From NCBI GenBank assembly GCA_000442015.1, contig KE561200.1, positions 62,001 through 96,851 of the forward strand: 34,851 nucleotides of DNA, written 5' to 3'. The notes under the pieces were generated by a model. That model was not told where the DNA came from. It saw only the letters and a program-made list of their open reading frames with translations, and did no database searches. Shown one piece after another: positions 1 to 34,851 of the stretch (the stretch's first letter is position 1; every line of letters starts with the position of its first letter). The stretch is from Rozella allomycis CSF55. Taxonomy: Eukaryota. The translations under genes and the position numbers were made by a program.

Positions 1-3000
1 AACCAAACCCCATCCATTGACATTCCTTATAGTTAGTTTATGTAGAATCTGTTCAAGTAAATCAGAAACTGTTGTCAATGAACCAACAGCATATTTTTGT
101 GATGATGCGTCCATTGTTTTAATGCAAACAAGAGTTCTTTCATTCTTTATTATTTGTGAAATTTCCAATTCATTTAGAATAAACTTTCTGTTGCCTTTGC
201 CAGTCAATTCTTTAAAATATTCTTCAACTGTATTATTTTTACGTTCAATTAGAAATGATAAAACATATTTATTCATATTCTATTGATATATAATAAAATT
301 GTTACTTTTGGCGGCAAGATGCAATTACACATGCTTGAAAGTATATCCCACAAATGTAGTTCGTAATTGTTAGATTTATCTATAGGTGTATTATTCAATT
401 GCTTAATTAATTGAAAATAAACTTCTTCAGACAAATCTGGATTTTCATGAATCAATTGCAAGAGCTTATTTATAGAAATCAAATAATCATCGACATTTTT
501 AGTTTCACAAATTTTATTTATTAATTTAAATGTTTCAATAGCCAAATTCTTTATTTTAGAACATGAAATTGTTAAACTGTTATCAATAGACTTTGAATAC
601 GTTAAAATAGATTGAATGGCTTTTATTTTAGCATCCATGTCGTATTCATTCACGCCTTGAATCAAAAGAGATTTTTCAGCGTATAAATAGATTGGATAAT
701 TTTCTACAAATTCTTTGTTTTTAATTTCTCTCTTTTCAATTTCATCTTGAGTTTGCTGTTGAACAGAAGAATTATTTAAATGAAGGCCTTTAATTTGTGC
801 TTCCTGTTGAGCATTGGAAATAATATTTGGTTGCAATTCAATTTCAGCCTCAATGGCCTCTTTAAATATTTTTGGCTCTGATGAAATTTCAGTTAATTTA
901 ACATCAACAGATTGTTTATCTTCTTCTTGATGTTTTTGTTTTTGTTCATCAACCACAAAGTCATCCAGAAATGAGAAAATATTGGCCACCTCATTAACCA
1001 AATTGGATTCCATTTTAATTGAATCATTTTGAAAAAGTTCAGGCAACTCATCAATATCATTTCTAAATTGTGTATCATTTGCGGTATTTGTCACGTCAAT
1101 GTTTGAATATTGCTTCCTAATCGCATTGGTCAACTTGAATTGCTGTAATTTATCCATTTTACCGCTTTTATATGCTTTTCTTCCGACGCAACTAAATTGT
1201 TTTCGTTGATTGGCTCATTTTGTTTCCTATTTGGAAATCCTAGTCGAACCCTTGTATAGTGACCCCGGTAAACTTGCTATGAATAAAATTATCTTTTTAC
1301 TTGACTGAATTTTAACAATTGCTTTCTTTTTTATTAAAAATCCTCTATAGCCCAAAAACTTGAGACATTCTAAAACAATGTCATGAAGCTACGCTTACCA
1401 TTTTGAAGGCTACGCATTGCAGAAATCGCTTTACTTCTTTGTCTTACTTTGAGAACAGTTCTAACCCATCCACCAATTCTACTTGAAGCTTCATTCTCAA
1501 TTTCATTTGATACTTGTTCCAATCTAAGATACTTTATAATCGTAAGTGAATTTAACTACACATTCAGTTTTTAGAAATATCTTTGTCTTTCCAATTGCCA
1601 ACTTTTCAGGCAATTTGAATTTAAAANTTAATTCTTGAAAATCGTTGGTGTTTGATTGAATAAACAAGGGATGATATCATTTTAGATTTAATGTATTTTG
1701 ATTACCTTGAACGAAATTCAGCAACAGTGAAACGATAGGGATATCCCAATTTTCTTATTTGAATTGTTTCCATCATCCCAGAGTATCTCATTTGATCTTT
1801 TGAATATTTGGACTTTATTTTACCAATAACCATCTCTGGATTAAATTCGAATGCTTTCTTTTCACTATTTGGCTTAATGCAGCGAATGTAGTGAGGAGTT
1901 GTTGACTTTAAGATATCAACAAGAGAATAAAGCTGAGACTTGAAACTGGACCCACAGCTAGACTTTTTACTTGAAACATTTAAACTTTCATTTAAGCTTT
2001 CATTAAAAATTTCTTTTACAAATTGATTCTTTTTCTATCAAGAATGTTTCTTACTGATGAATTTTCGAAAATAGAAAACAATTCTTCATCAACGGCGTCT
2101 TTATTCTTTTCCAAGAAACTTTCCACTTGATAGAAAACTTCTCCAGCGTAATGAAAAACTCCAAATTGATTCTTTAAAGTTTTTGGTTTTAAAAATCTAT
2201 TTTTATTTCCCAATGATTCTGTAAGTTTTAACAAGAAACTCTCATCTGTTCCCTTGGGAAATTTACACTCTTCATCCAACAATGCCAAAATTCCTTCTTT
2301 ATAATAGATNATGCCAAAATTCCTTTTTTATAATAGATTTAATTTAATACCCATTTTCCCTTCAATCACATCAAGACTTGGCTGGTTGTCGTTAAATGAA
2401 ATTTCTGTCCAATCTAATCCTTCTTGTTGGTATTGTTCTTGTTCAAGTTTAAAAATGAAAAGATTAAAAAATTGTTGCAGTTTTTCATTGGCGTAATTAA
2501 TACACAATTGTTCAAAACTATTAATCTTTTAATTAACGACTTCACAAAATACCTGAAAGTTTTCAAACCCAAAAATGTCCAAAATGCCAATGTATTTGTC
2601 ATCCATTTGTTCACTACTGGTTGAACTATTAATCACATCAACTAGATGCTGAAACAATTGATTGTAAATAAACTTTGCAATTGAATCTCTATTATCCCAA
2701 ATCTTTTAATTTATTCAAATTTAAAATACTTGAATTTCCTTTATTGGTATGAAAGTAGTTTCTCCCCTAACATTCATCTTCTTAAACAACAAAACCCTCT
2801 TAAACTTTTCAAAATCTATTCCCATCGATATTGAGATTTTCTCAACTAAATCTTCATTCGACAACACCAAAGAATCAGATTCATCCTTTGTAAACTTTAT
2901 ATTGCCAAACAACAGAATCGACGACACAAATCTCATCAATTCAACAATCTTCTCTTCCTCAAACCCTAGAATAGTCAACGAAATCTTCAATTCAGAAAAC

Positions 3001-3777
3001 TTTTCACATTCATCAATCCCTTGCACATTCTTTGTTCCATTCTTATTTAAATACTCATAATCTTCAAATGGCAACAGCCCATACATCTCCGCTTCTTCTT
3101 TACTGCATCCAAGTAACATTTGATAGAAAATATGATAATTTCTTTCATTTTTAGCTTGCTTTGAAATTCTACTCTTTTCCAACAAATAATTTTGCATTGT
3201 CGCTCCTTTAATAACATTATTATCATCAAAATGAATCTTTATAAACTTTCCAAATCTGCTCGAATTGTGGTTTCTCACGGTTTTGGCATTCCCAAAACTT
3301 TCCAATACTATATTCGCCTCCATTATTTTTCTAGATATACTAAGACCATTAGTTCGCATTATACTGCTCAGATACTCCAAGATCAACTTTGTGGACTCTG
3401 TTTTTCCAGATCCACTCTCTCCACTGATTATCATTGACTGACATTTCCCAGTAGAAACAAGATTGTGATATGCTTCTTGAGAAAGTGCATAAATGTGCGG
3501 CGGCAAGTCTCGTATTCTTGCACTGGAGTACGCTTCGACATATTCCTTTTACAAATCAATCAAAGATTTACTCTATTGTATATCGGGAGCAGTGAATATG
3601 GGTTCAAAGCAATCAATATGGTTCCACAATACGACTATAACCAGCAAAAACAATCCTTACATAAATTTTCTGTTGACTATATCTACTTCCCAGCGCATTC
3701 AAAATTGAATCATCCGTAAGCAAAGTCAAATTTGTCATATCGTCTATATCTTCCTCATTTGATCCTGCTCCAAACAT
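1..3777 (-). CDS. Unconventional myosin with motor, IQ, MyTH4 and start of FERM domain (myosin VII/X/XXII-like); runs off the left edge; about 13 introns in window
   Basis: Spliced translation starts [17 protein letters not shown] and contains GESGSGKT (P-loop), [41 protein letters not shown] and IQ-like VKIQSIYRG. MyTH4 motif [13 protein letters not shown]...LWDILS follows, then a FERM-like segment ([14 protein letters not shown]) at the edge. Confidence 0.92.
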
Positions 3778-3855
3778 TGCACAATCCAAACAATAACACG
3801 CTTCTTGGAAACAGCAAATAGCATTTCCATTGGCATTGCCAACTTTGCGAATTTT

Positions 3856-4551
3856 ATGAAAGAAAAGATTAGAGTTTTGGTTCTAGGAGATTATGGTATC
3901 TTTTGGTTTGGTAAATAACAAAAGCATCTGGAAAGACAAGTTTGTTGGAAGCGCTTACTGGAGAAAAGCAGCGCAAGATTATGGGGTGCCAGCCCTATGT
4001 ACAGGTACGCTGTTTTAAATTTCGGTATAGATTATAGAAAAAGATTCGAATGTATTGGTCGTGGAATGGCTTGAAGTAGGGATTGATCCTACGGCCAAAT
4101 CTACGCAAAGTAAAGGCTGTGTGTTTCCTTTTGCAGAAGGTAATTTGGATTTGCGGGTGTGTTAGCCTTTGTATGTGTTCATGATTTATCCAATAGGAAA
4201 TCTTTACAGAACATGTGGAAAATTATTGCGGATGGACTGTCATTTCACCGAAGAGTGTCGTCTGCGTCTCATGAGAAGCTATTGCATATTGTAAATACTA
4301 CTGAAAAAGAGGTCTTGCCAATTCTTTTAGTTGGAACAAAGCAAGACAAGGCGAATTTTGATATACTTGTGAATAATCATTTGGAGGCCAATCTGATTGA
4401 AGAATACAAGGCACAGTCATTACATTTAACATGCAAGAATGGAATGATTGATGAATCTATGAGGAATGAAATTTATAAATTTTTGTTTAGTATTGTTAAA
4501 GATACATCCAGCCCCACATTAGTCCATAAGCGAAGAATATTTAAAGATTAG
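3856..4551 (+). CDS. Rab-like small GTPase, RABL3-like; 3 introns
   Basis: MKEKIRVLVLGDY/ASGKTSLL P-loop, then VHDLSNRKSLQN and LPILLVGTKQD, typical of RABL3. GT-AG introns of 29, 26 and 26 nt restore the frame. Confidence 0.75.
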
Positions 4552-4573
4552 AATAAATAGGATTAACAATATT

Positions 4574-6472
4574 TTATTTAATGTTTTGAGCTCCAAATAG
4601 GAGTGCAATAAATGAGTCTACAGAGCGCTGAATTTTGATATTCATGTGAATGTCTTGGTAAATATGCGAAAATGCGTACATAATCAATGGGCCAACGTTA
4701 TCATGAAAGAAATTGATATTTTTAGCCTTTTCAGCAATAAAATAGTGTTTTGAATAGTCTATAAGGCCTTCTTTGAGTTCATCAAAGTCGCGAATGGCAG
4801 CTCTTGGATTCCATAAAGCCCTCGCTGCTAGAGTGTTTAAGAATGCAGAAATAACGTAAAGATAATATTTCTTTGAAACCAAATCGAATAATTCTTTTGC
4901 GAGAGGTAAATAAATTATATCCATTTGAAGTAAATTATCGTTTAATTCTTTCTTGTAAACTTCAATTGAAGATTTGAATTTTAGTTTCTTTGAACCATTA
5001 AAAGATCCATCTTCATTAAAGTAAGATTGAAGAGAGTAAAATAATTCATCAATTTCTTTTTCTGTTATTTCATTAAATGTTGGATACTGTAGAACTATTT
5101 TTCTAAAATGATCTTTTTGAGATTGAGAAAAATCCAGATCTGTTTTGTAAATTTCCATAATAGATGCCTTTAGATAATTATCTTTCCATTCGCTTATCAT
5201 AGGCGATAATTTATTGATTAAACTATTTATTTGAGGCTGAATCGAATTTAAGTAATCTGTGGTTGATCTTAATATCAAATGAGCATCCAAGAGAACTTTT
5301 GGTTGTTCAACTTCAGCAACGTAAGGCTTTTCATCAAAATTATCTTTAGATGAATCATGAGAATTTTTAATTTGAATAAACCCATGGATTAGTTTCTTTA
5401 TTGTTTCCAAATCTGAACTTTCATTAATATGAAGCTTTAATCTCAATCCAAACAATAAATCAATGCTATTTTCAATCGCTTTATTTCTACTAAAATTTTG
5501 GATCGTTACAAAAATGTCCTGAAAAATGTCTCTAGCTATTTTTATTGCTTCCTCTTTGCTAAACTTGAGCATTGATTGTTCAAGTGCACAAGCCACAATA
5601 TACTCTTTAGGTATCAATGTATTAAAAAATGATGGTATTTTATTTCCTGTATGTTTAATCACCCTTTCAAAATGTTTTTGCAGCATTGAAAAGAAGATTA
5701 TATAATCTTCAGGTTGATTATACAATGGCCCAAATATATTATGTTTAAGCCAATCTAATACAGCATGCTTTTTAGCTCTAATCAAATCAGCTGAAACAAC
5801 AGAATACAAATTAAAACTTGTCTCACTCATTGAAGGATAATATTTTGAAAGTTTCTTTTCCATTTCTTCTAATGATAAAATTCTTCCATTTTCTTCGATC
5901 AAAGTCTTTAGTTTTGCCCACAGGATTGGAATATGCTCATTGTATGGTAAAATCCTCATTTCAAGCAAACATGGGTCATTCAATCCTGGTGTTGCAACAG
6001 TCGCCTCTTGATGAACTTTTTCAATTATTTCTGCAGGCTTTAATGCAAGCAAATCATTCTTTAATGATATTTGTTCCCTTACTCGCCTCAAAATAGTTCC
6101 AACCAAACAATTCTGACATTTCACCACGGCATAATGCTCTAATGTGCTTTGAACATATTTTTTATATTTTGGATCAGGATATTGTACTTGATGTTTTGCA
6201 ACTATAGCTTCATACCCTTCAGATACAATCCCAATAGTCGTATGTGACTCTTGTGATGTTTCAAATTCATTGAATATACTCTCAAGCATTTCAAAAGACC
6301 AATCTACTTGCTCTTGGTTCATGATAAAACCTTTTGTTTGCTCTTTTTTGGACTTTTCATGTAAATGTCCCTTGTCTCTTGGCGGTGTAGGCAGGTTTTT
6401 CAATGTTGCATAAACATCTTTGCAAATAACAAGCACTAATATAAAAATTGATAGCTTGCTATAAAATATCAT
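4574..6472 (-). CDS. Intronless 632-aa hypothetical protein with predicted signal peptide
   Basis: 1.9-kb uninterrupted ORF. The N-terminus MIFYSKLSIFILVLVICKDVYA looks like a cleavable signal peptide. No family recognised. Confidence 0.8.
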   Translation of the reverse strand: MIFYSKLSIFILVLVICKDVYATLKNLPTPPRDKGHLHEKSKKEQTKGFIMNQEQVDWSFEMLESIFNEFETSQESHTTIGIVSEGYEAIVAKHQVQYPDPKYKKYVQSTLEHYAVVKCQNCLVGTILRRVREQISLKNDLLALKPAEIIEKVHQEATVATPGLNDPCLLEMRILPYNEHIPILWAKLKTLIEENGRILSLEEMEKKLSKYYPSMSETSFNLYSVVSADLIRAKKHAVLDWLKHNIFGPLYNQPEDYIIFFSMLQKHFERVIKHTGNKIPSFFNTLIPKEYIVACALEQSMLKFSKEEAIKIARDIFQDIFVTIQNFSRNKAIENSIDLLFGLRLKLHINESSDLETIKKLIHGFIQIKNSHDSSKDNFDEKPYVAEVEQPKVLLDAHLILRSTTDYLNSIQPQINSLINKLSPMISEWKDNYLKASIMEIYKTDLDFSQSQKDHFRKIVLQYPTFNEITEKEIDELFYSLQSYFNEDGSFNGSKKLKFKSSIEVYKKELNDNLLQMDIIYLPLAKELFDLVSKKYYLYVISAFLNTLAARALWNPRAAIRDFDELKEGLIDYSKHYFIAEKAKNINFFHDNVGPLIMYAFSHIYQDIHMNIKIQRSVDSFIALLFGAQNIK

Positions 6473-13099: not shown

Positions 13100-13961
13100 T
13101 TACAAATACAATAACTGGACTTTGGGATATGATAACATTAATATTGACCTCCAAAGTAACCTAGATAAGAAACCTGCTGCAAGCACACCATATGCATTGA
13201 ATATATTCACATTTAAGAATGCTTTGATAGTAACCCTTGATTTAATTACCAGATAATGCTTCCGCATTAGATGTTAATACAAATACATTTATCAATGCAA
13301 AATAGTCAAGAGAGTTGTAATCCCAGATAACCATCAAGAGAACAATCAATTTAAAAAAGGAAGATATGATTAAAGATATGGAAATATAATTGTATCTATA
13401 TGGCAATATCATACGTTTTACTTGACAATAATAGTTTGAGACCATTTCATTGTTACAAGACACCAGACAGCGGCCAAAACACCCAAATGAAATACAAGAA
13501 CATCTAAAATTAGAATAACATATTTATATTACCGATTGTTGATATGACAAAAAGATAGATGTATTTAAAAATGAAGCTTGAGGTTTGAAAATCGACAATA
13601 AACCATTTAATATCTCTATTACAAAGCATTATAATGTACAAACATCAAATAGTATCAAAAGCGTCCCTATACGAAAAACAATGCTTTGAAATCCCTTGTC
13701 GACGTATTCCATTCTATTGAAAAGCAGATGCCTATAGACTTGAGATTTATGCAACACCATTTAAGTACTAAACATTACAATTACCATGTCTATGAATATT
13801 ATTATAAATTCCAACTCCACATATGGATCTGCAATAACCCTGCATTTTTCCTCATTGACAAAAATGCATAAACTTACACAAGGAGACAGCCTAATATTTC
13901 CTTTTGAATATTCTGTATATAAACTATTAACTGAATGACCGCATTGCACGCAAATGGGCAT
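13100..13961 (-). CDS. ARV1: Sterol homeostasis / GPI-related ER membrane protein Arv1; about 6 introns
   Basis: MPICVQCG...NIRLSPC/EKC..ADPYVE zinc-binding Arv1 homology domain, IDM/VLHKSQVYRHLLFN, LFDVYIKW, LLMVIWDY. Confidence 0.9.
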
Positions 13962-13996
13962 TTTTTAAATTTTGGTAAAGAAATTTCATAAAGAGT
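13962..13996. promoter_or_regulatory. 35-bp divergent intergenic region (ARV1/CWC22), putative bidirectional promoter
   Basis: ATGs at 13961(-) and 13997(+), with two AAATTT elements in between. Confidence 0.6.
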
Positions 13997-16355
13997 ATGA
14001 TGGCAGAAGAAACTGTTTCGGTGCCCGTGTTTGATCAAACAAGGTCAGGAGGAGCGTATATTCCACCTGCGAGACTTGCGCAAATGCAGCAAATAGTTAC
14101 TGACAAGAAAAGCGAGGCCTACCAGAGAATGGCATGGGAGGCACTTAAAAAGTAAAGGTAACACTAGTATAATATAGGTCTATAAATGGGTTAATTAACA
14201 AAGTTAATATTTCCAATATAAAGCATATTGTGCCCGAGTTGTTTAGTGAAAATCTCATAAGAGGAAGAGGACTGTTTGCGAGAAGTATGATGAAAGCCCA
14301 GTCTGCTTCTTTACCATTTACAAGAGTATATGCGGCTGTCGTGGCAGTTGTTAATACAAAATTACCGATGGTTGGTGAAGTGTTGCTGAAGAGATTAATA
14401 ATACAGTTTAGAAGGTCATACCGCAGAAATGACAAGGTAATGCTATATAATTTTTGTTAATAGGCTCAATGTTTGGCTGTGACAACGTTTCTTGCTCATT
14501 TAGTCAACCAAAGGGTAGGGCATGATATTATCGCATTGCAAATATTAACGCTGCTATTGGAAAAGCCAACCGATGATTCTGTAGAAATAGCTGTTGGTTT
14601 TATGAGAGAATGTGGTTTGTTTCTGCAGGAATCATCACCTGCAGCAACGAATACCGTTTATGAAAGATTCAGATCAATTTTGCATGAAGCGCAAATAGAC
14701 AAGAGAGTTCAATATATGATTGAAATTCTGTTTCAAGTCAGGAAAGAAAAGTTTAAAGTAAGCAATTTATGAAATTTCAGAAAGGAACATCCTATTGTGA
14801 TTGAAGAGCTTGACTTGGTAGAAGAAGAAGAACAAATAACGCATTTTCTTTCTATAGATGAGGAACTTGATGGACAAGATTCATTAAATATTTTCAAATT
14901 TGATTCTAGCTATCTTGAAAATGAAGAAAAGTATCAAAGAATAAAAGCTGAGATTCTTGGAGAAGATTCAGATGAGGAAGAGGGTTCATCTGATGAGGAA
15001 CAAGAAGAGACTGAAAATGCAAAGGTTGAGATACAGGACAGAACAAGTACTAATTTGGTGAATTTGAGAAAAACCATTTATTTGGTTGTAATGTCGTCTG
15101 TTGACTTTGAAGAATGTGTTCATAAGTTAATAAAGTTGAATATTGCAGAGGGACAAGAGGTATTTAATTTGTGAAATTTCGTAATTTAGATTGAGTTGTG
15201 CAAAATGTTAATTGAATGTAACAGCCAAGAGAGAACATATAATCGTTATTATGGATTGATTGGGGAACGTCTTTGCAAGTTGAATCAAATCTGGATGGAG
15301 CAATTTGATAAATCATTTAGAGAGACAGTAAATTTAGTAAATTTCAGAAATTAGTTTGAAACAATTCATAGATACGAAACCAGTAGAATAAGAAACACTG
15401 GCAGATTTTTTGGACATTTATTTTCAATGGATGCACTTCCGTGGTCAATATTTGAGATTATTCATTTAAATGAAGAAGAAACCACATCCGCTTCTCGTAT
15501 CTTTATAAAGGTATTGTTTCAAGACTTGTGTGAATCTCTTGGATTGAAAAAGCTTAAAGAGAGGCTTTCTGATCCGTAAGTTATAATTTAAAGATTTATT
15601 AAAGATTTATGCAAGAATTTTTCACTGGAATTTTTCCCAAAGAGAATCCAAGAAACACTCGTTTTTCTATCAATTATTTTACTTCTATTGGATTAGGTGG
15701 AATTACTGACGATATGCGTGAGTTTCTCAAGCAGAAAATTCAAGAGCAAGAAAGCAGCGATGAATCTGAAGAAGATTCTTCAGAATATGAAAGTTCCGAT
15801 CAAAGTGATTCTGAATGTGAACCGTCAAGTCCACGCAGAGATCATAATGGTAAGTTAGTTGAAGCAGAGTACAACTATCGCATGCGTTCACCAAGTCCTT
15901 CTCGCAGCCGAGGAAGGTCACCAAGTAGAAGCAGATCACCTGCTAGACGTCACCATGAAAGCAGATCTCGTCACCGTGAAACAGATAGATCTCCAGTCAG
16001 ACGTCATCGTGAGCATGAAAGAAGCAGATCTCGTCATCGACGCACTAGCAGATCCCCTGTAAAACGTCGTGATACAAGCAGATCCCCTGTTAGACGTCAC
16101 CGTGAAACAGATAGATCTCCAGTGAGACGTCACCATGAAAGAAGTAGATCTCGCCATCGTGAGACGAGTAGATCTCCAGTTAGACGTCACCGCGAAAGAA
16201 GCAGATCACCGGTGAGGCGCCGCCATGAAAGTCCATCAAGAGAAAGTAGCAGATCTCCAGCTAGAGAAAAAAGATCACGATCCATAAATCGTCGCTCAAG
16301 AAGCAGAACTCCAAAGCGTTACAATAAAAGAAGCAGATCTCGCTCTCGTCATTGA
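13997..16355 (+). CDS. CWC22: Pre-mRNA splicing factor Cwc22 (MIF4G + MI domains, RS-rich tail); 6 introns
   Basis: [92 protein letters not shown]. Confidence 0.96.
15925..16270 (+). repeat. Coding imperfect tandem repeats encoding [15 protein letters not shown] units in the CWC22 RS domain
   Basis: Recurring agatctccagt-agacgtcac-cgtgaaa units. Confidence 0.85.
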
Positions 16356-16459: not shown

Positions 16460-18301
16460 TCAAAAGCTATAAAATTTGACCTTTGCAATCAACTTTTCAT
16501 TAAAGATAAAATTTCCCTGAAGATTTAAATGAGATAAATTTGATGTTTTCATGCTATCAAACAAATGAGTAGCGCCTAAATCGTGGATCTGATTGCATTC
16601 CAAGTCAAGAGCCCTAAGCATGCATGATGGTAATATTTGTGAAAAACGGATAGCTGTTGCATCAGTAAGTAAATTCTTTGACAAGTCAAGAACATGCAAC
16701 CTTTCAATAAGAGTGAACAAAGATTCAATATCCTCATCACACAATCTGTTTCCAGAGAAATCAATTTGTTTCAAAGATATTGGCAAACTTAAAGATGCAA
16801 AAGCATGCTTCAAACTTGGCTTTATTTGAAACTTGTCGTAAAACGATTGTTGTTGAAGTCCAGACACACATAATTCTTCAAGTTGTAAACCTCCTAGATT
16901 GAAAAAGAATGGTTTGATGTCCTGACTTGGCATTCCTTCCATGCAATCAAAAGAAAGTGATTTCAAGAATATTTTATTGCGACTCTTGAATATATTGATA
17001 ATTTGGTTTAAACTTCCTGCTTGAAATGATCTCGCTTGAACAGAAAGTGTTGTTAAATAATTCTTCTTAAATCTCAAGGCTTTTGATAAAGCTACAAAAC
17101 TCGTTTTCCTGATTTCTTTTGTTGCAACGCTCAATGATTGCAAAAAGTAAAGTCTTTTGCCCAACAATTTAAACGCTCTTTCATCAATATCGTAAATTGA
17201 AACAGTAAAGTCCCTTATTCGGCTTTTGTGCAGTCGGTTGAATAAACAGTACAGTCCATTATTAATTTGAGTTGTATTGCAGTACCTTCTATTCAATCCA
17301 ATCGACATTGTTGTGACTTTACACTCTTTAAGTGCTTTTGAAAGATAGATGAGCCATTCGCTGTCAAAATTATTGTCAGATAAATCAAGAGTTGTAACAG
17401 GTAGAGTTCTTATACAATCAACCAATTCAAATGGTAACATGGTCTTAATTCCAGTCAATGATAATACAGAAAGCCTATCTAAACATAAAAATGATGAAAT
17501 ATTGATATTGCAATTAATGTTGCACATTTCTACATTCTTAATACGTCTCGATAACTTTAAAATATCCAAAAGTTCTGTATTTTTGCAATGAGATTTCAAA
17601 TTCCAAAAAACAACTCTCTCCAATTGCTTAAAACAAGGGTCATTAAATTGATACTTTCCACATGGAATATTACCATCCGTAAATGTTACTGATTTCAAAG
17701 TGTCCATTGAACTAAGCGATTCTATAAACTGTTTAAACCCACGGCTTTTTAAAAGTGAGCGCCCAATAACAATTTCTTTGATTGCAGACTTTTTCATCGC
17801 TACTTGAAGCTGACCAATCTCGTCACCACGAAATTCCAAAAGTGAAAAGTCAATGAAAGTTACTCTTGAATTTGGAAGCTCATTTATGATCTCTTTAATC
17901 TTTTTGGAAGATATCGCACGTATTTCTTCCTCTTCGATATCATCGTCAAGTCTGGTAAAGTCAAAATGCAATATGAATCCAAATTTCTCAGGGAGATTTA
18001 ACGGTATAATCTTTTTCGAAAAGTATCTCATGTCTGATGCTACAATACATTTTAGCAAAGAAAGGGCATCTTTGGACCGACTAATGATTCTTGCCTTGAC
18101 TTGTGAAAACTTGGTGTCTTTAAGATTCAAATTTGGAAAGACATCGCTAAACTTTTCAATTTTCAGTTGTCTTTGGAGGTTCAATAACGGCCTGATCATC
18201 GTAAAAAATTTTCGGTTCGTCATTGAAAGGATCAAAAGGTCTGCAGCCTCCAACTGAAAGAAAATGATACGGATTGTTTCACTTGATAATACCGAGAGCA
18301 T
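16460..18301 (-). CDS. Intronless F-box-like plus RNI-type leucine-rich-repeat protein (613 aa)
   Basis: N-terminal LSVLSSETIRIIFFQLEAADLLILSMTNRKF fits the F-box pattern. LRRs include LDLSDNNF, IDFSGNRL, LDLSKNLL, LDLECNQI and LNLQGNFI. Confidence 0.8.
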   Translation of the reverse strand: MLSVLSSETIRIIFFQLEAADLLILSMTNRKFFTMIRPLLNLQRQLKIEKFSDVFPNLNLKDTKFSQVKARIISRSKDALSLLKCIVASDMRYFSKKIIPLNLPEKFGFILHFDFTRLDDDIEEEEIRAISSKKIKEIINELPNSRVTFIDFSLLEFRGDEIGQLQVAMKKSAIKEIVIGRSLLKSRGFKQFIESLSSMDTLKSVTFTDGNIPCGKYQFNDPCFKQLERVVFWNLKSHCKNTELLDILKLSRRIKNVEMCNINCNINISSFLCLDRLSVLSLTGIKTMLPFELVDCIRTLPVTTLDLSDNNFDSEWLIYLSKALKECKVTTMSIGLNRRYCNTTQINNGLYCLFNRLHKSRIRDFTVSIYDIDERAFKLLGKRLYFLQSLSVATKEIRKTSFVALSKALRFKKNYLTTLSVQARSFQAGSLNQIINIFKSRNKIFLKSLSFDCMEGMPSQDIKPFFFNLGGLQLEELCVSGLQQQSFYDKFQIKPSLKHAFASLSLPISLKQIDFSGNRLCDEDIESLFTLIERLHVLDLSKNLLTDATAIRFSQILPSCMLRALDLECNQIHDLGATHLFDSMKTSNLSHLNLQGNFIFNEKLIAKVKFYSF

Positions 18302-22981: not shown

Positions 22982-23054
22982 GCCTTCTTAGCTCAGTTGG
23001 CAGAGCGCATGCCTAGTAAGCATGAGGTCGAGTGTTCAAATCCCTCAGAAGGCA
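22982..23054 (+). tRNA. tRNA-Thr (AGT)
   Basis: Acceptor stem GCCTTCT/AGAAGGC-A, D-arm TAGCTCAGTTGGCAGAGC, anticodon stem CATGC-CT AGT AA-GCATG, T-loop TTCAAAT (one T-stem mismatch), and a T5 terminator about 10 nt downstream. Confidence 0.93.
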
Positions 23055-23096: not shown

Positions 23097-26000
23097 ATGC
23101 AAATGCAAGTTTTGCAGTCTACTAATATTCCCTGGAGCAATATTCTTTCATTTAACTTATTGAAACAACGAAACGATCCTATTTTTGATGAATTGATTGA
23201 CTCATTAATTGACAGCAATGCAACAAAGGATGATTTAAAGCGTTCTATTGATGAATGGGTTAACCTGTTTAATGTAAAGGGTTAAAGGATACAATATAGT
23301 TTATGAAGCAGGGTCTTATCCTTCGCACAGAGTATTTGGCCACGGCAGATGAAGAGATCACCCAACTTCAGGTATAAGTTTCCATAGAACTGGAAAGAAT
23401 GAAATTGATGCCCTAAAAATAAAATCAAGCCCTGACCAGATTTTTTTCGACAGAAATATCTCGGATTATGAAAGTCGACTGCAGGAATTGCAAAACGAGC
23501 TGACCGTATAACATAATATTGTACCTTTCCCATAGAATGCCCAAATTCAAAATTCAAAATATGAAGACCAAGTTATGGAACTGAAAGAAGAAAACAGAAG
23601 GTCCCAAGGTATGCAATGAAACTTCTACCATAACAAGATCTTTTGTGTGAAGAGTTGTCTAATGAGAATAAGACATTGGAGAGTGAAATTAAATCACTAG
23701 AAGACACTTTGCAGAAAGAAAGACTTGATTCTTTGAACCAATTACAAGTAAATGATTGATATTGCCAATATTATGAGTTTGAAACTAAAATTGAACGAAT
23801 ATGAACTCAAGTTGGATCAGTCAGAAAAGGAAATAAAGAATTATAAAAGCTCTCTTCAAAAAATAAAGGATCAGCTATCTTTAAAGAAGGAGCAAGATGA
23901 TGAATACAAAAAGATAATTAGAGACAAAAATTCAGAGGCATCTAGGTATTTGAAAGAAATCGAGGACACAGTACGCAAATACGACTCACTGAAACTGGAA
24001 AATGATAATAATATACTCTGTCTAAAGAAATTGAGGGACGATTATGAAAAGTAAGAAAGAAAATTACCTTACATCTTGAGTTTGAGAAACGAAAAAAGAG
24101 AACTTGAAATTGTCGTACAAGAAAATGACACATTGCTAAGATCATTAGAGAATGACAAGCAATCTTTAGAACGGAAATTAAATGAAGCATTGGCTAAACT
24201 GGAAGAGAGAAACAACTTGGATGAAGTTGTATTTGATGAAATAAAAGAGCAAATTGCGGAATGGACTGTAAAGATACTTTTGTATTTACCAAAGGATGTT
24301 CTAGAAACAAAAGAAAAGGAGATATGCCGATTGATTGATGAAAACGAGCGATTGAAAAATGATATGATTAAAAAGAATATAGAGTTAGAGGAATATGGAT
24401 TTAATCTACAAACAATCGTTGAAAAGGACGAAAAGATAAAGGAGCTTTCTGACGCACTTGATGATGCATATCAAGACTTTGAGGCCCTTGGAGGGACCAT
24501 GGTGAATATAGAATCACAAAGCAGGGAAAGAATATCTGAAAATGGAGAAATTAATGATTTGGCAAATAAATTGCGACATCAAATAAAATTAAACGAGGAT
24601 TTAGAAAGTCGTTGTGTACAATTGGAAACAGAAATAGTTCATTTTCGTTCAATGATTTACCGATACGAAAGTGGTAAATATTTATAGTTAGTTGAAATAG
24701 GTGAGTATGGATTGACTGAAGCAAACCATGAAATCTCCAAATTAAAGAAATCAATTCTAACGAAAGATAATGAAATAAATGAGCTTGTGCAAAATGTAAA
24801 TCATTTAGAACACGAAGTAAAACTTGATATGGAATTAAAGAGATCAACGACCTGGTCGAAGAGAATTTAGCGATAAAGGAAAAATACAATGTCAATGAAA
24901 ATGAATTAAGGAAAACAACTAGAGCATTAAGGGCTTTAGAGAGTGAAAAATTAAGGGCGGAAAACTATCAGTTGAGAAAAGAAATTGACGACTTGGAAGA
25001 AGAAAGGATCAAGCTGAAGAATCAAATCAGAGTCAAAGTTAAAGAAAAGGCTGAAGGTGCATTAAGCATTGGAATGAAAGTTACGGATATATTATATCTT
25101 GAAGAAGGAGTTCAACATGAACCCCAAGCGGAAGAAAATACGAAAAAGTTTGTTCAAAATGAACAGTTAAGGTTTTCAGACAAGAATATAATGACAGACA
25201 ATTTAACACAAATAAAAGATGATAAAAAAGTAACTAATTCATTCGTACAGTCCTCATTTGACAAATTTGAAAAAGCCATACAATCTGAATTGTCGACGTC
25301 CGAGCAAGAAATCCAAACGGTATTTTTTCAAAAGGGCCAGTCAATTCAAACGATTGAGCAAGGAGTCGGAGATTCTAAATATATCAAAGAGCTTGAAGAT
25401 CGATATGAGCAAATTAAAGAGAAATTAAGAAATGTTTTAAACAAGAGAATTCAAGAAGATGAAGAAAATAATTCTAGATTCATCGATTTGACTGACAAAG
25501 TAACCTTCAATTTAAAGTAAAAGAGTATGAAAATGAAATTAACCAATTGAAACAAGTGATAGAGAGTTATTCAAAAGGTGAACATCCCATAAATCAATTC
25601 TATAAAGCTTCCATGGAAACCCTGGAAGAGCAATTGAAATACAAGGAAAAGATAATTTTCAATTTAGAGAAACTATTGAAAGAGGCGCAAGNAGAGACAC
25701 TATTGAAAGAGGCGCAAGAATCGGTTTATGAAAAATTGGAAACTCGTAAATAAATATGCTTTCATAGAGTTAGAAAAAAATGAATTAAAGAATTACTATG
25801 ATACTTTAAAGGAGAAAAAAAATCTCCTTGTATCTCAAAGCCTGGTTGAGAAACCAGTTCAACTAGAACCTCAAAATAACTTGTAAACAAACAAAAGTTT
25901 CATAATAGCAACGACATTCGAATGCTAAAACAAGATTTTCATCAAACTGTAAAAATAAAAGTAAAGCAAAATGATCTTAATTAAAGGAATATGAAATCGA

Positions 26001-27656: not shown

Positions 27657-28821
27657 ATGCAAATTACGTTCGTCTTGGATAATGGACAGTTGAACACTAT
27701 AGACGTTGATAAATCCTTGAATGTAAGACTAAGAATTATTGCTTACAGATTTCAAGTTTAAAAGCACTTTTGGAGTCTGAAATGAAGATTCCACGCAGAG
27801 AAATCGTCTTAATTTACAACGGGAAAGAGATATCCAACAACGATCTTACCTTGGAACATGCCGGGATATCGAATTTCGACGTAATAACAATCCGTAGAAA
27901 GCAAAGTCAAATCCCTTCAGCACCTAACGTAACTGGAAGTAATCAAAATACGTTACAAAATATGTTACAAAACCCAGAACTAATGAGACAATTTCAGCAA
28001 ATGGTAAAACGTTTAATTCTGTATTTTAGATTTCAAACCAACAGATGCCAGGATTAGGAACCAATGATAGCATGAGCTTAGATTATCAAAAAAGGTTGGA
28101 AGAAAATATAAGAATGCAAAACGTTCAACAAAATATGGAATTGGCTATGGAATATTATCCGGAAATGTTTGGAAGTATTACCATGTTGTACGTAAATTGT
28201 CAAGTAAACGGAATTAACATCAAAGCTTTTGTTGATTCTGGGGCCCAAATGACAATTTGTAAGAAAAGTGTTTTACTTTTATTAGTGAACAAACAAACGG
28301 CTGAAAGATTGGGATTAATGGAGCTCCTAGACACACGATATCAAGGGAAAGCAGTCGGTGTTGGAACGGCCAATATTATAGGCAGGATTCACGCCGCAAC
28401 ATTGAAAATCGGAAATCAGCATTTGATGTGCTCGTTTACAGTAATGGAAGGCCAAGGTGTCGAATTTCTTTTCGGTTTAGATATGCTAAAAAGGCATCAA
28501 GTAAAAAAAGCATATTTCACCTGAAAGGCTAAAATTGATCTTGAAAAGAATTGTTTGAACATAAATGGTGAAGAAATCCATTTTCTTCCAGAGTCAGAAA
28601 TACCATTAAGTGGTTTAGCCAAGTCACCTTTACCATCACCTCAAGTGAAAGACCATCCAACCTCATCATCAAGTAAATCAACGTCCTTTGATGAAGACAC
28701 AATTCAAAATTTAATAAACTTGACTGGTGCAGGGAGAGATAATGTTATAGAAGCGCTGAAATTAGCTCAAGGTAATCCAGACCTTGCAGTTAGTTATCTC
28801 ATGGAACTTCATAATAAATAA
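27657..28821 (+). CDS. DDI1: DNA damage-inducible protein 1 (UBL - retroviral-like aspartic protease - UBA); 4 introns
   Basis: AMEYYPEMFGSITMLYVNCQVNG..KAFVDSGAQMTI, GVGTANIIGRIH, FLFGLDMLKRHQ, and C-terminal UBA AQGNPDLAVSYL. Confidence 0.96.
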
Positions 28822-29947: not shown

Positions 29948-30021
29948 TGTTTTCATCCAGACTTGAACTGGAGGCCTTCTGCGTGTTAAGCAGATGTGAT
30001 AACCAACTACACCATGAAAAC
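29948..30021 (-). tRNA. tRNA-Val (AAC)
   Basis: Minus strand GTTTTCATGGTGTAGTTGGTTATCACATCTGCTTAACACGCAGAAGGCCTCCAGTTCAAGTCTGGATGAAAACA: acceptor GTTTTCA/TGAAAAC, anticodon stem TCTGC-TT AAC AC-GCAGA, T-arm TCCAG-TTCAAGT-CTGGA. Confidence 0.94.
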
Positions 30022-33155: not shown

Positions 33156-33383
33156 TGATACTGTTGCTAAGCCGGGGTTGTGAAAATCCGAGTATCTAAA
33201 TGGAAATGTTGGAATCACAAAGGAGAAAAATGAAAAGATTAAAAGGAGAAACAATGCTACAGAATATTAAATAAAAATATTAACATTTAATAGTATAATA
33301 CAAGAAACCGAAAAATATACACTCTCATATTCAATAATTTTTTATACAATTGTAAATATTTTTTATTCCATTGTAAATATTGT

Positions 33384-34851
33384 TTATTTGATTAGAAACG
33401 AGATGGATTGAATAAAGTTTCCTGGTTGCACCATAGAAGGATGATAAAATGAATTGAACAAGGTAGGATTAGAGCTATCTATAAGTTGGCATGATCCATT
33501 GATGGAAGAATATTTAAGACAGATGTATTCTTTGAGAATGTTTTCTACGTAAAAATTGCACTGATTAAATTGGAAGATTATAATTACTGTCAAAGATAGA
33601 GTAGAGTCTTCATAATTGATGCATTGAGCTTTGTGTTTCTGTAGAGGGAAGAATATTTTAACATTCTAATCTGAATAAATAATTTACTTTGTTTACGTTT
33701 GATATTTCATGAGAGAGAAGCGCTAGAGAAGACAATGCAGATTTTGGTGCTTTGAATAAACTGATTATTGAAGAGAATGAATGTTCATCCAAGAATTCAC
33801 CTTTTGAGAGAATTAAAGTTTTTAATGATTGTAAATCCATATCAGAAATTGAATCTAGAGAATATAAATCTATTTTAAAAGAAGAAGAAAAAATACCAGA
33901 AATTTTGAAATCAATTTTCCAATTGTTGGCCCTTGTAAAGTCAATGATGAGATTGATGTTTCCAACGTTGAAATTAGCAATTAGATTTGGAGATTCAATA
34001 ATTTTAAAATTTGAATCTGAAATATTTTCAAAGAAGATTTTAATTTTAGAGAGAGAATAAAGCGATTCTAATTGACCAGAAAGATCAACAAGAAGAGATT
34101 TTAATTCATCAATGAAAAATAAAGATTTATTTGGGAAATCTAGAAAAGGTTTTGAATTTTTATTTCCACTTTGTTTGTCTCTTTTGTAACCATCTTTAAT
34201 AATGAATGAATTGTTTGATAAACATTGAAAGACAATGACATTTCCAGATCTAAATCTAATTGTAAAACAATTTTTATAATTTGGAATAAAAGAAACAATT
34301 TGATTTTCAAGTTTAATAAAATATTTTCTACAAATCTTTAAAGGAACAAAAGTGTTTAAAATAAATTCAAAAATTTCATCAATTAATTTTTCTTCTTCAA
34401 TTTCTGAATTTGCTTTAATAAAATCTTCAATCATAAAATTCAATTGAATTGAAATTAATGAAAAAATATTTTCCTTTTCAATCAGAGTAATCCCATTGTC
34501 AGTTTGAAGAAATATAATTTCAAACTTTTCATCTCCAATTGAAAACAAAAATTTAAACTTTAAAATTTCAATCCAATTTATTTCACCAAACGATTTCAAT
34601 CGATGAGAAAAACAAAATAATTTTTTATACAATTTGAGAAATTTACAAATTTCAGAATTCTTATTATTCTTTAAAATTATCGCATTAATTGATTCATTAT
34701 AAAATAAATCATCTTTAAATTGTAAAGAAGAAAATATTAATTTTTCATTCAAGAAAATAACAGCAGTTGAAATGTTTGAAATTCTTATTAAAGTGTTAAA
34801 GAACAAAAGATGACCATTGAATGAACAAAATGAATCATCCAAACTTAAATC
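33384..34851 (-). CDS. Hypothetical protein, 5' end beyond the right edge; long AT-rich exon plus a probable final exon
   Basis: A 394-aa open frame (33658-34842) lies in the same frame as the downstream ORF 33384-33593 and can be joined to it by a GT-AG intron of about 48 nt. No family recognised. Confidence 0.6.

Follow-up and report, generated by a model that had tools for sequence, protein, structure and literature searches.

Putative GT-TG introns in ARV1 and other genes of Rozella allomycis

The second intron of the ARV1 gene of Rozella allomycis CSF55 begins with GT and appears to end with TG. Few signals of eukaryotic genes are as constant as the 3′ AG of major-type introns, and the locus raises the question whether such an intron could be removed at its TG, or whether another junction, a defective gene or an error in the sequence has to be assumed. 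The question was analyzed in the window, i.e., the whole stretch of DNA of 34,851 nt, which has a GC content of about 33%.

The ARV1 gene and the local introns

The gene model of ARV1 comprises the following features.

13100..13961, minus strand: ARV1 gene, 7 exons, 6 introns, 232 codons
13961-13878, 13850-13785, 13757-13640, 13613-13533, 13503-13422, 13395-13250 and 13221-13100, minus strand: ARV1 exons
13851..13877, minus strand: ARV1 intron 1, 27 nt, GT..AG (ends GAG), in frame and without a stop, retained in the public protein P0004
13758..13784, minus strand: ARV1 intron 2, 27 nt, GT...TG, phase 0, T of the TG at 13759
13614..13639, minus strand: ARV1 intron 3, 26 nt, GT..AG (ends GAG)

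Read from 13784 to 13758 on the minus strand, intron 2 is GTAATTGTAATGTTTAGTACTTAAATG. The exon before it ends ...ATA GAC ATG at 13785, and the next exon opens GTG TTG CAT at 13757. A sequence-only reading of this DNA had described a 27-nt minus-strand segment at 13784..13758 that starts with GT, ends with TG and lies between two ARV1 exons, and the sequence is indeed as described. Its assignment of the gene to ARV1, and of the segment to the second intron, was borne out by matches to the Pfam family Arv1 (PF04161) and by the spliced product of 232 codons, which is collinear with the homologues P0006 and P0028. Exon 1 matched positions 1-26 of the Pfam profile with 35 bits, and the stretch of exons 2-3 matched positions 27-90 with 58.5 bits (cut-off 20). 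Arv1 proteins have an N-terminal domain with two CxxC pairs. Both were found in the ARV1 product, CVQC in exon 1 and CEKC across the junction of exons 1 and 2, the first C of the latter being the last codon of exon 1. The remaining introns are canonical in five of five cases, and the remaining exons are all open. The placement of intron 1 is based on the profile, since exon 1 fits positions 1-26 and exon 2 begins at 27; in P0004 the retained intron is a 9-residue insertion versus the profile. ARV1, which starts at 13961, and a plus-strand gene at 13988..16349 are divergent, and their apparent starts are a few tens of bases apart.

The N-terminal translation of ARV1 matches P0004, which is annotated as 'hypothetical protein O9G_001969 / Protein ARV [Rozella allomycis CSF55]'. 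In this public model, intron 1 is kept, exon 3 is skipped, and exons 4-5 are in the wrong frame. When public proteins were searched for ARV1 exon 3, two weak, unrelated Arv1 fragments were found among 7 candidates scored, and none contained exon 3.

Tiny spliceosomal introns, mostly of 26–29 nt and starting with GTA, interrupt the genes of this R. allomycis DNA in very large numbers. In the window, 61 training introns were obtained from the bridging of open frames, and a simple dynamic-programming gene model yielded about 88 GT-AG introns. The canonical set consists of 84 GT-AG introns of 25–31 nt that were hand-picked in recognisable genes, five of them from ARV1. Model introns longer than 34 nt, intergenic bridges and a few introns with weak GTT, GTC or GTG donors were dropped, and so was the pair 2350..2323 and 2266..2241, where homology puts one 54-nt intron. 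The lengths of the 84 canonical introns are as follows.

25 nt: 1 intron
26 nt: 27 introns
27 nt: 21 introns
28 nt: 14 introns
29 nt: 13 introns
30 nt: 5 introns
31 nt: 3 introns

Lengths of 26–29 nt were found in 75/84 introns. The last three bases of 81 canonical introns are TAG (37), AAG (30), GAG (8) or CAG (6). Neither a pyrimidine tract nor a strong branch motif was found in these 81 introns, and the motifs TTGAT, TGATA and TTTCA were weakly enriched. Even for these canonical introns, the 3′ site seems to be defined unusually loosely.

Against this background, ARV1 intron 2 is ordinary in length, donor and base composition, and TG in place of AG is the single difference. Compared with U2-type introns, it has the GT donor, the local length and the local composition, and its 3′ end is not AG. 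Its donor is GTAATT, and GTAAT opens 12 of 81 local canonical introns. The combined score for donor, context and length is 3.99, compared with a median of 4.52 and quartiles of 2.32 and 5.42 for the 61 training introns.

Retention of the 27 nt was claimed to meet a stop, and an in-frame TAA is present at 13763..13761. The window contains open frames of 625 and 633 codons with zero TAA and zero TAG; therefore, it uses the standard genetic code, and the TAA inside ARV1 intron 2 is a stop. A ciliate-type code with TAA as Q was ruled out by the same two frames of more than 600 codons.

Two further claims about the boundaries were confirmed as well. The sole internal AG ends at nt 17, and its use shifts the frame into stops. 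Sliding of the boundaries gives no canonical pair, since the six boundary pairs that lead to the same mRNA are AT-AA, TG-AA, GG-AT, GT-TG, TA-GG and AA-GT.

Homology across the ARV1 junction

The removal of ARV1 intron 2 was analyzed with a query in which exons 1-3 were translated together with the two 27-nt introns, the TAA being written as X. A search of 1.84 billion representative proteins returned 447 Arv1 homologues at E<=1e-3, and the best 150 of the 447 were used. In many listed homologues, the query residues 1-107 are covered by their own residues 1-89, and the 18 fewer residues correspond to the two 9-codon introns, i.e., ARV1 introns 1 and 2.

The sequence-only reading had held that the junction peptide is the Arv1 motif without an indel. 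This was verified with the 149 proteins listed after P0004 (P0006-P0154), 142 of which have a [YF][RK]H motif that is preceded by 12 residues or more. D or E is found exactly nine residues before the Y of the motif (YRH) in 138 of these 142 listed homologues. Further residues were counted back from the Y in the 142 proteins: 140 share L at -6, 107 share K at -4 and 80 share Q at -2, and H at -5 and V at -1 are each present in 88. The GT-TG product agrees with the homologue residues at -9, -6, -4 and -2, and the motif spacing ID..L.K...YRHL.FN, taken from the homologue alignment, is found with the GT-TG product only. The protein P0006, the closest among the matches listed, reads FIDMVLHKPQVYRHLLFNR. 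The seven residues encoded just past the TG, VLHKSQV, rank first or second in frequency among the homologues at 6/7 positions, and on the aligned sequences this agreement exceeds chance. The four exceptions to the spacing, P0020, P0030, P0070 and P0093, come from other organisms and are longer by about 19 residues between KPQV and YRH. The additional residues most likely stem from introns retained in the gene models, at a position unlike that of the Rozella intron.

Alignment to Arv1 homologues, which had been named as a check of the GT-TG intron, was carried out with a scoring profile of 141 homologue segments that included zero Rozella sequence. The products of the different junctions scored as follows.

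GT-TG removal: 140.5 bits, gapless over all 89 residues
Retention: 125.1 bits
Canonical 30-nt GT-AG intron (13768..13739): 118.3 bits
17-nt intron ending at the internal AG: 81.4 bits
Canonical 90-nt GT-AG intron (13784..13695): 80.1 bits
Public model P0004: 75.3 bits

The 17-nt intron was rejected on its frameshift and score, a 46-nt GT-AG intron was rejected as it also shifts the frame, and the 90-nt intron was rejected as it removes conserved residues.

The intron had been called an obligate GT-TG intron. The term holds insofar as no canonical pair would give the conserved protein, and 'obligate' should be read as a statement drawn from homology. What had been overlooked were the two in-frame canonical GT-AG options of 30 nt and 90 nt, both of which score lower. 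The 30-nt option on the minus strand overlaps intron 2 and exon 3, and a cell that used it would make a protein with VIVMFI for VLHKSQV, which loses LHKSQV and is one residue shorter. This intron would be in frame, would remove the TAA, would have canonical ends and would be of a length found in 5/84 introns. However, it costs 22 bits versus the Arv1 profile, the deletion is absent in 138/142 listed homologues, and the discarded bases would have to encode 6/7 consensus residues in frame by chance. Its score for donor, context and length is -1.16, the worst value and below all 61 training introns (minimum -0.33). Use of this junction instead of the GT-TG pair is quite unlikely, and the 30-nt intron could be a minor ARV1 isoform.

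Retention of the 27 nt, with the TAA being read through or recoded and nine residues being added, is extremely improbable. The segment is a multiple of three with a single stop, and two other 27-nt introns without an in-frame stop are kept in public models. On the other hand, the long open frames without TAA and TAG indicate that TAA is a stop, the nine residues would be an insertion versus the 141-segment profile, the D-to-Y spacing is kept in all but the four exceptions named above, and the segment has the donor and the length of the local introns.

Further putative GT-TG introns in the window

The window contains the following additional genes.

4-3882, minus strand: MyTH4 myosin gene (Pfam/PDB matches)
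Tryptophanyl-tRNA synthetase gene (named from an HLGNY motif, which we take to be a mark of this enzyme)
Septin gene (Pfam/PDB match)
EF-hand_13 protein gene (Pfam/PDB match)
F-box/LRR protein gene (Pfam/PDB match)
CCA-adding enzyme (CCA1) gene (Pfam/PDB match)
RAD23-like protein gene (Pfam/PDB match)
DDI1-like protein gene (Pfam/PDB match)
Ankyrin protein gene (Pfam/PDB match)
M24 aminopeptidase gene (Pfam/PDB match)
Mitochondrial carrier gene (Pfam/PDB match)
22982-23054, plus strand: tRNA-Thr(AGT), in a short gap between protein genes
29948-30021, minus strand: tRNA-Val(AAC), in a short gap between protein genes

A survey of segments of 24-31 nt that start with GTA and bridge open frames without a GT-AG option returned ARV1 intron 2 and a myosin segment at 1705..1678. 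Together with the gene models and homology, the candidates in addition to ARV1 and the myosin exon concerned are as follows.

1678..1705, minus strand: putative myosin GT-TG intron, 28 nt, phase 2, GTAATCAAAATACATTAAATCTAAAATG
1560..1677, minus strand: myosin exon, end of the motor domain, skipped by P0155 and P0156
19658..19685, minus strand: putative GT-TG intron of the CCA-adding tRNA nucleotidyltransferase, 28 nt, phase 2, GTAATTCCTTAATTTATTTCTATAGTTG
23748..23775, plus strand: putative GT-TG intron of a coiled-coil gene, 28 nt, phase 0, GTAAATGATTGATATTGCCAATATTATG, joining open frames of 38 and 92 codons

The exon before the myosin intron ends ...AEFRSR. The nearest AG is 72 nt past the donor, and 44 nt without AG follow the TG. 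Removal of the GT-TG intron yields ...EFRSRYHPLF...IGKTKIFLK, which is gapless at the junction versus homologues of myosin VII and V, and the only equivalent boundary pair is GG-AT. A myosin exon matches P0155, which is flagged as the window's own protein, and P0156 (ROZALSC1DRAFT_25326) from the same organism. In both proteins, EFRSR runs directly into LEQVSNE, and the exon 1677..1560 is left out. Addition of this exon lifts the phmmer scores versus the homologues shown, e.g., from 71.6 to 82.6 for P0158 and from 68.2 to 78.9 for P0161. A PDB search with the 38-residue exon gave zero matches. On this comparison, the public models of ARV1 and myosin sidestep the TG sites by skipping real exons.

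Three other features of the myosin gene were observed. A 27-nt GT-AG intron at 1797-1823 (minus strand) is in frame and without a stop, and therefore it cannot be found from open frames alone. Its translation, GKIKSKYSK, is a 9-residue insertion versus PDB myosin Vc; it is removed in P0156 and kept in P0155 as nine residues. The 54-nt intron at 2297-2350 (minus strand) resembles a tandem duplication of about 26 nt with an N at 2310 inside, and the duplicated unit consists of the acceptor region and the first bases of the next exon. P0155 and P0156 are one residue apart (I or T) within their shared stretch.

In the CCA1 gene, the GT-TG intron was picked by the gene models, and Pfam PolyA_pol matches both exons that flank it. 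In solved structures, the match of the upstream exon ends at residue 127 (9ns4_A) or 167 (9kma_A), and that of the downstream exon begins at 129 or 169. Exactly one residue is left, and thus exactly the one split codon. GT-TG is the sole possible boundary pair, and an AG 3 nt upstream of the TG, which would make a 25-nt intron, would give an immediate TGA. Homology across the junction backs the myosin and CCA1 introns as candidates for GT-TG removal. The coiled-coil intron was picked in the gene models, GT-TG again being the sole possible boundary pair. Use of an AG 2 nt downstream of its TG would lead to a stop after 8 codons, and Pfam gave weak coiled-coil matches only for this gene. It is probably a fourth GT-TG intron.

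The sequence-only reading had treated ARV1 intron 2 as a single oddity, and this view was not upheld, as the window holds at least four putative GT-TG introns. The GT-TG reading of ARV1 therefore becomes stronger and its meaning is changed: to judge from the gene models, GT-TG is a recurrent class in the window and not a lone oddity. The four introns score 2.5-4.0 for donor, context and length, within the range of the training introns. In 4/4 cases, the TG that would be used is the first one at a distance of 20 nt or more from the donor. It lies at nt 27 or 28, within the modal range of length in the 84 GT-AG introns. ARV1 and myosin have zero AG between nt 18 and 45. The frequency is 4 versus about 84 GT-AG introns, and 4 in 88 is a rough value, hand-picked from our own gene models.

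TG at nt 20 or beyond is also present inside 27/84 canonical introns, and TG lies at most 6 nt downstream of 32/84. Therefore, TG cannot define the 3′ end alone. No motif was found in the window that sets the TG introns apart from the AG introns. U12-type introns have the 5′ consensus RTATCCTT and, 10-15 nt before their 3′ end, the branch site TCCTTAAC. The 5′ ends of the four GT-TG introns are GTAATT, GTAATC, GTAATT and GTAAAT, which do not have the form of minor-type donors. The CCA1 intron holds TTCCTTAAT at nt 5-13, which is like the minor-spliceosome branch consensus, and it has no minor-type 5′ consensus; this branch-like sequence is present in CCA1 only, among the four introns.

Two alternatives concern the TG of ARV1 itself. 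If the T at 13759 arose from faulty sequencing or assembly, or represents a minor allele, the true intron would end with AG. The window contains isolated N bases at 1627, 2310, 9671 and 25692, which suggests that the assembly contains polymorphic positions or ambiguities in the calling of the consensus. The assembly is therefore not flawless, and the I or T difference between P0155 and P0156 also points to imperfect or polymorphic assemblies. However, the same T-for-A change at the same intron position is found in four separate genes, and in the well-defined genes of the window no acceptor damaged in another way was confirmed. In each of the four introns, the A at -2 is replaced by T, and as damage of a single base of the AG has six outcomes, the chance of four identical ones is 6 x (1/6)^4, about 0.005. 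These four identical changes argue against a sequencing error, which we regard as very unlikely, and also against decay of ARV1.

In the latter case, ARV1 would be a young or crippled pseudogene in which a change from AG to TG killed the acceptor, and no functional mRNA would be made. In favour of this, Rozella is a reduced obligate parasite, and the public ARV1 model is aberrant. In addition, AG-to-TG mutations in human genes abolish the use of the site (PMC2374985). In contrast, the other ARV1 exons are open, five introns are canonical, and the 232-residue product is collinear with homologues. TG ends are also found in the CCA-adding enzyme and in the myosin motor domain, both without other signs of decay. 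A pseudogene is thus unlikely as the explanation of the TG.

Several other candidates for TG introns were rejected. The segment 7753..7725 lies upstream of the start codon of tryptophanyl-tRNA synthetase, 27939..27964 (plus strand) lies within a continuous open exon of DDI1, the segments 6082..6055, 3054..3026 and 17285..17257 lie within long open exons, and many further candidates are on the antisense strand. The DDI1 stretch 27939-27964 shares its first 13 bases, GTAATCAAAATAC, with the myosin GT-TG intron, and ATG is at the end of both; this identity is probably due to chance. When all ends were allowed in the model, the introns that ended with neither AG nor TG had weak donors or were intergenic bridges, e.g., 3900..4570 and 33250..33400, or a canonical alternative was at hand (10023 versus 10031; 2350..2324 versus the 54-nt GT-AG intron). 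They were rejected on donor, position or alternative.

Possible mechanism and comparison with known TG acceptors

Removal of ARV1 intron 2 and at least three other introns of the window at TG by the major spliceosome is the best supported reading, and we consider it probable. Use of the TG in transcripts, and the way in which the site is chosen, are inferred from the gene structures. The 3′ end of such short introns might be set largely by the distance from the 5′ site or the branch. The terminal G would be needed, and the base before it would be A or, less often, U. AG would be preferred when it is at a suitable distance, and TG would be used where there is none such. In spliceosome structures, the last G of the intron is paired with its first G, and the A that precedes the last G is paired with the branch adenosine; a U-A contact that replaces the latter pair seems feasible. 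In two introns, the TG would have to prevail over a poorly placed AG, which lies 3 nt before it in CCA1 and 2 nt after it in the coiled-coil gene. Competition from these AGs is to be expected and counts against the TG reading. With less assurance, we lean towards the view that UG is routinely accepted as well as AG in the ultra-short introns of R. allomycis, with a few per cent of constitutive GT-TG introns, some of them in essential genes, and with a ruler of about 27–28 nt from the donor that would select the site in place of the AG dinucleotide.

TG acceptors have been described for 36 human genes; each of them is accompanied by an AG at a distance of up to 28 nt, and none is the only 3′ site of its intron (PMC2374985, Szafranski et al. 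2007). About 0.01% of the human candidate TGs are used, and AG-to-TG mutants failed to splice at the TG (PMC2374985). The Rozella introns resemble the vertebrate U2-type TG sites of that account in the normal GT donor, in TG as the last two bases and in a purine favoured at +1 (PMC2374985). Like the human TG-AG tandems, the ARV1, CCA1 and coiled-coil introns have an AG at most 28 nt from the TG (PMC2374985). However, neither of the AGs near the ARV1 TG, one 10 nt upstream and the other 19 nt downstream, gives the conserved product, and in the myosin gene AG is absent up to 28 nt from the TG. Unlike the human sites, TG would be the only productive site in four Rozella genes, about 4 in 88 introns would be concerned, and the introns are 27-28 nt long and have no pyrimidine tract.

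A second system are the introner elements IE-B and IE-D of Micromonas, which have GT-TG ends, are repeated and mobile-like, range from 100 to 6,494 nt and comprise 31 members (PMC3879977). GT-TG appears to be a regular boundary pair there and not an alternative, as proposed here for Rozella (PMC3879977). In contrast, the Rozella introns are 27-28 nt long and, by eye, do not share family features beyond the donor. In a fungus, GT-TG exists at a low level: the RNA-supported annotation of Ganoderma lingzhi contains 22 GT-TG junctions of about 92,000, or 0.024% (PMC11590231). The Rozella value of about 4 in 88 would be roughly two hundred times higher if it held genome-wide.

For R. allomycis itself, putative introns of about 30 nt with premature stops have already been noted in S23 genes (PMC6349667). 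The organism and the tiny size are the same as here, and non-AG ends are unmentioned in the accessible text of that paper (PMC6349667). The acknowledgements of PMC13393502 indicate that RNA-seq data of R. allomycis exist. In the accessible literature on Rozella splicing, transcriptomes and GT-TG introns, and in the accessible part of Table S2 of PMC13393502, introns of Rozella with ends other than AG were not found to be reported.

If the TG reading is true, Rozella would be the first lineage with a non-AG 3′ dinucleotide as a regular and sole site of ordinary major-type introns. A free-standing TG acceptor in about 1 in 20 introns would be a natural system for splicing biochemists, and it would allow recognition of the 3′ site in the second catalytic step, and the substitution of length for sequence, to be probed. 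Rozella gene catalogues would also systematically skip or garble exons beside GT-TG introns. Rozella is a key reference for the origins of fungi and microsporidia, and therefore such model errors would feed into comparisons of gene content and into phylogenomic comparisons.
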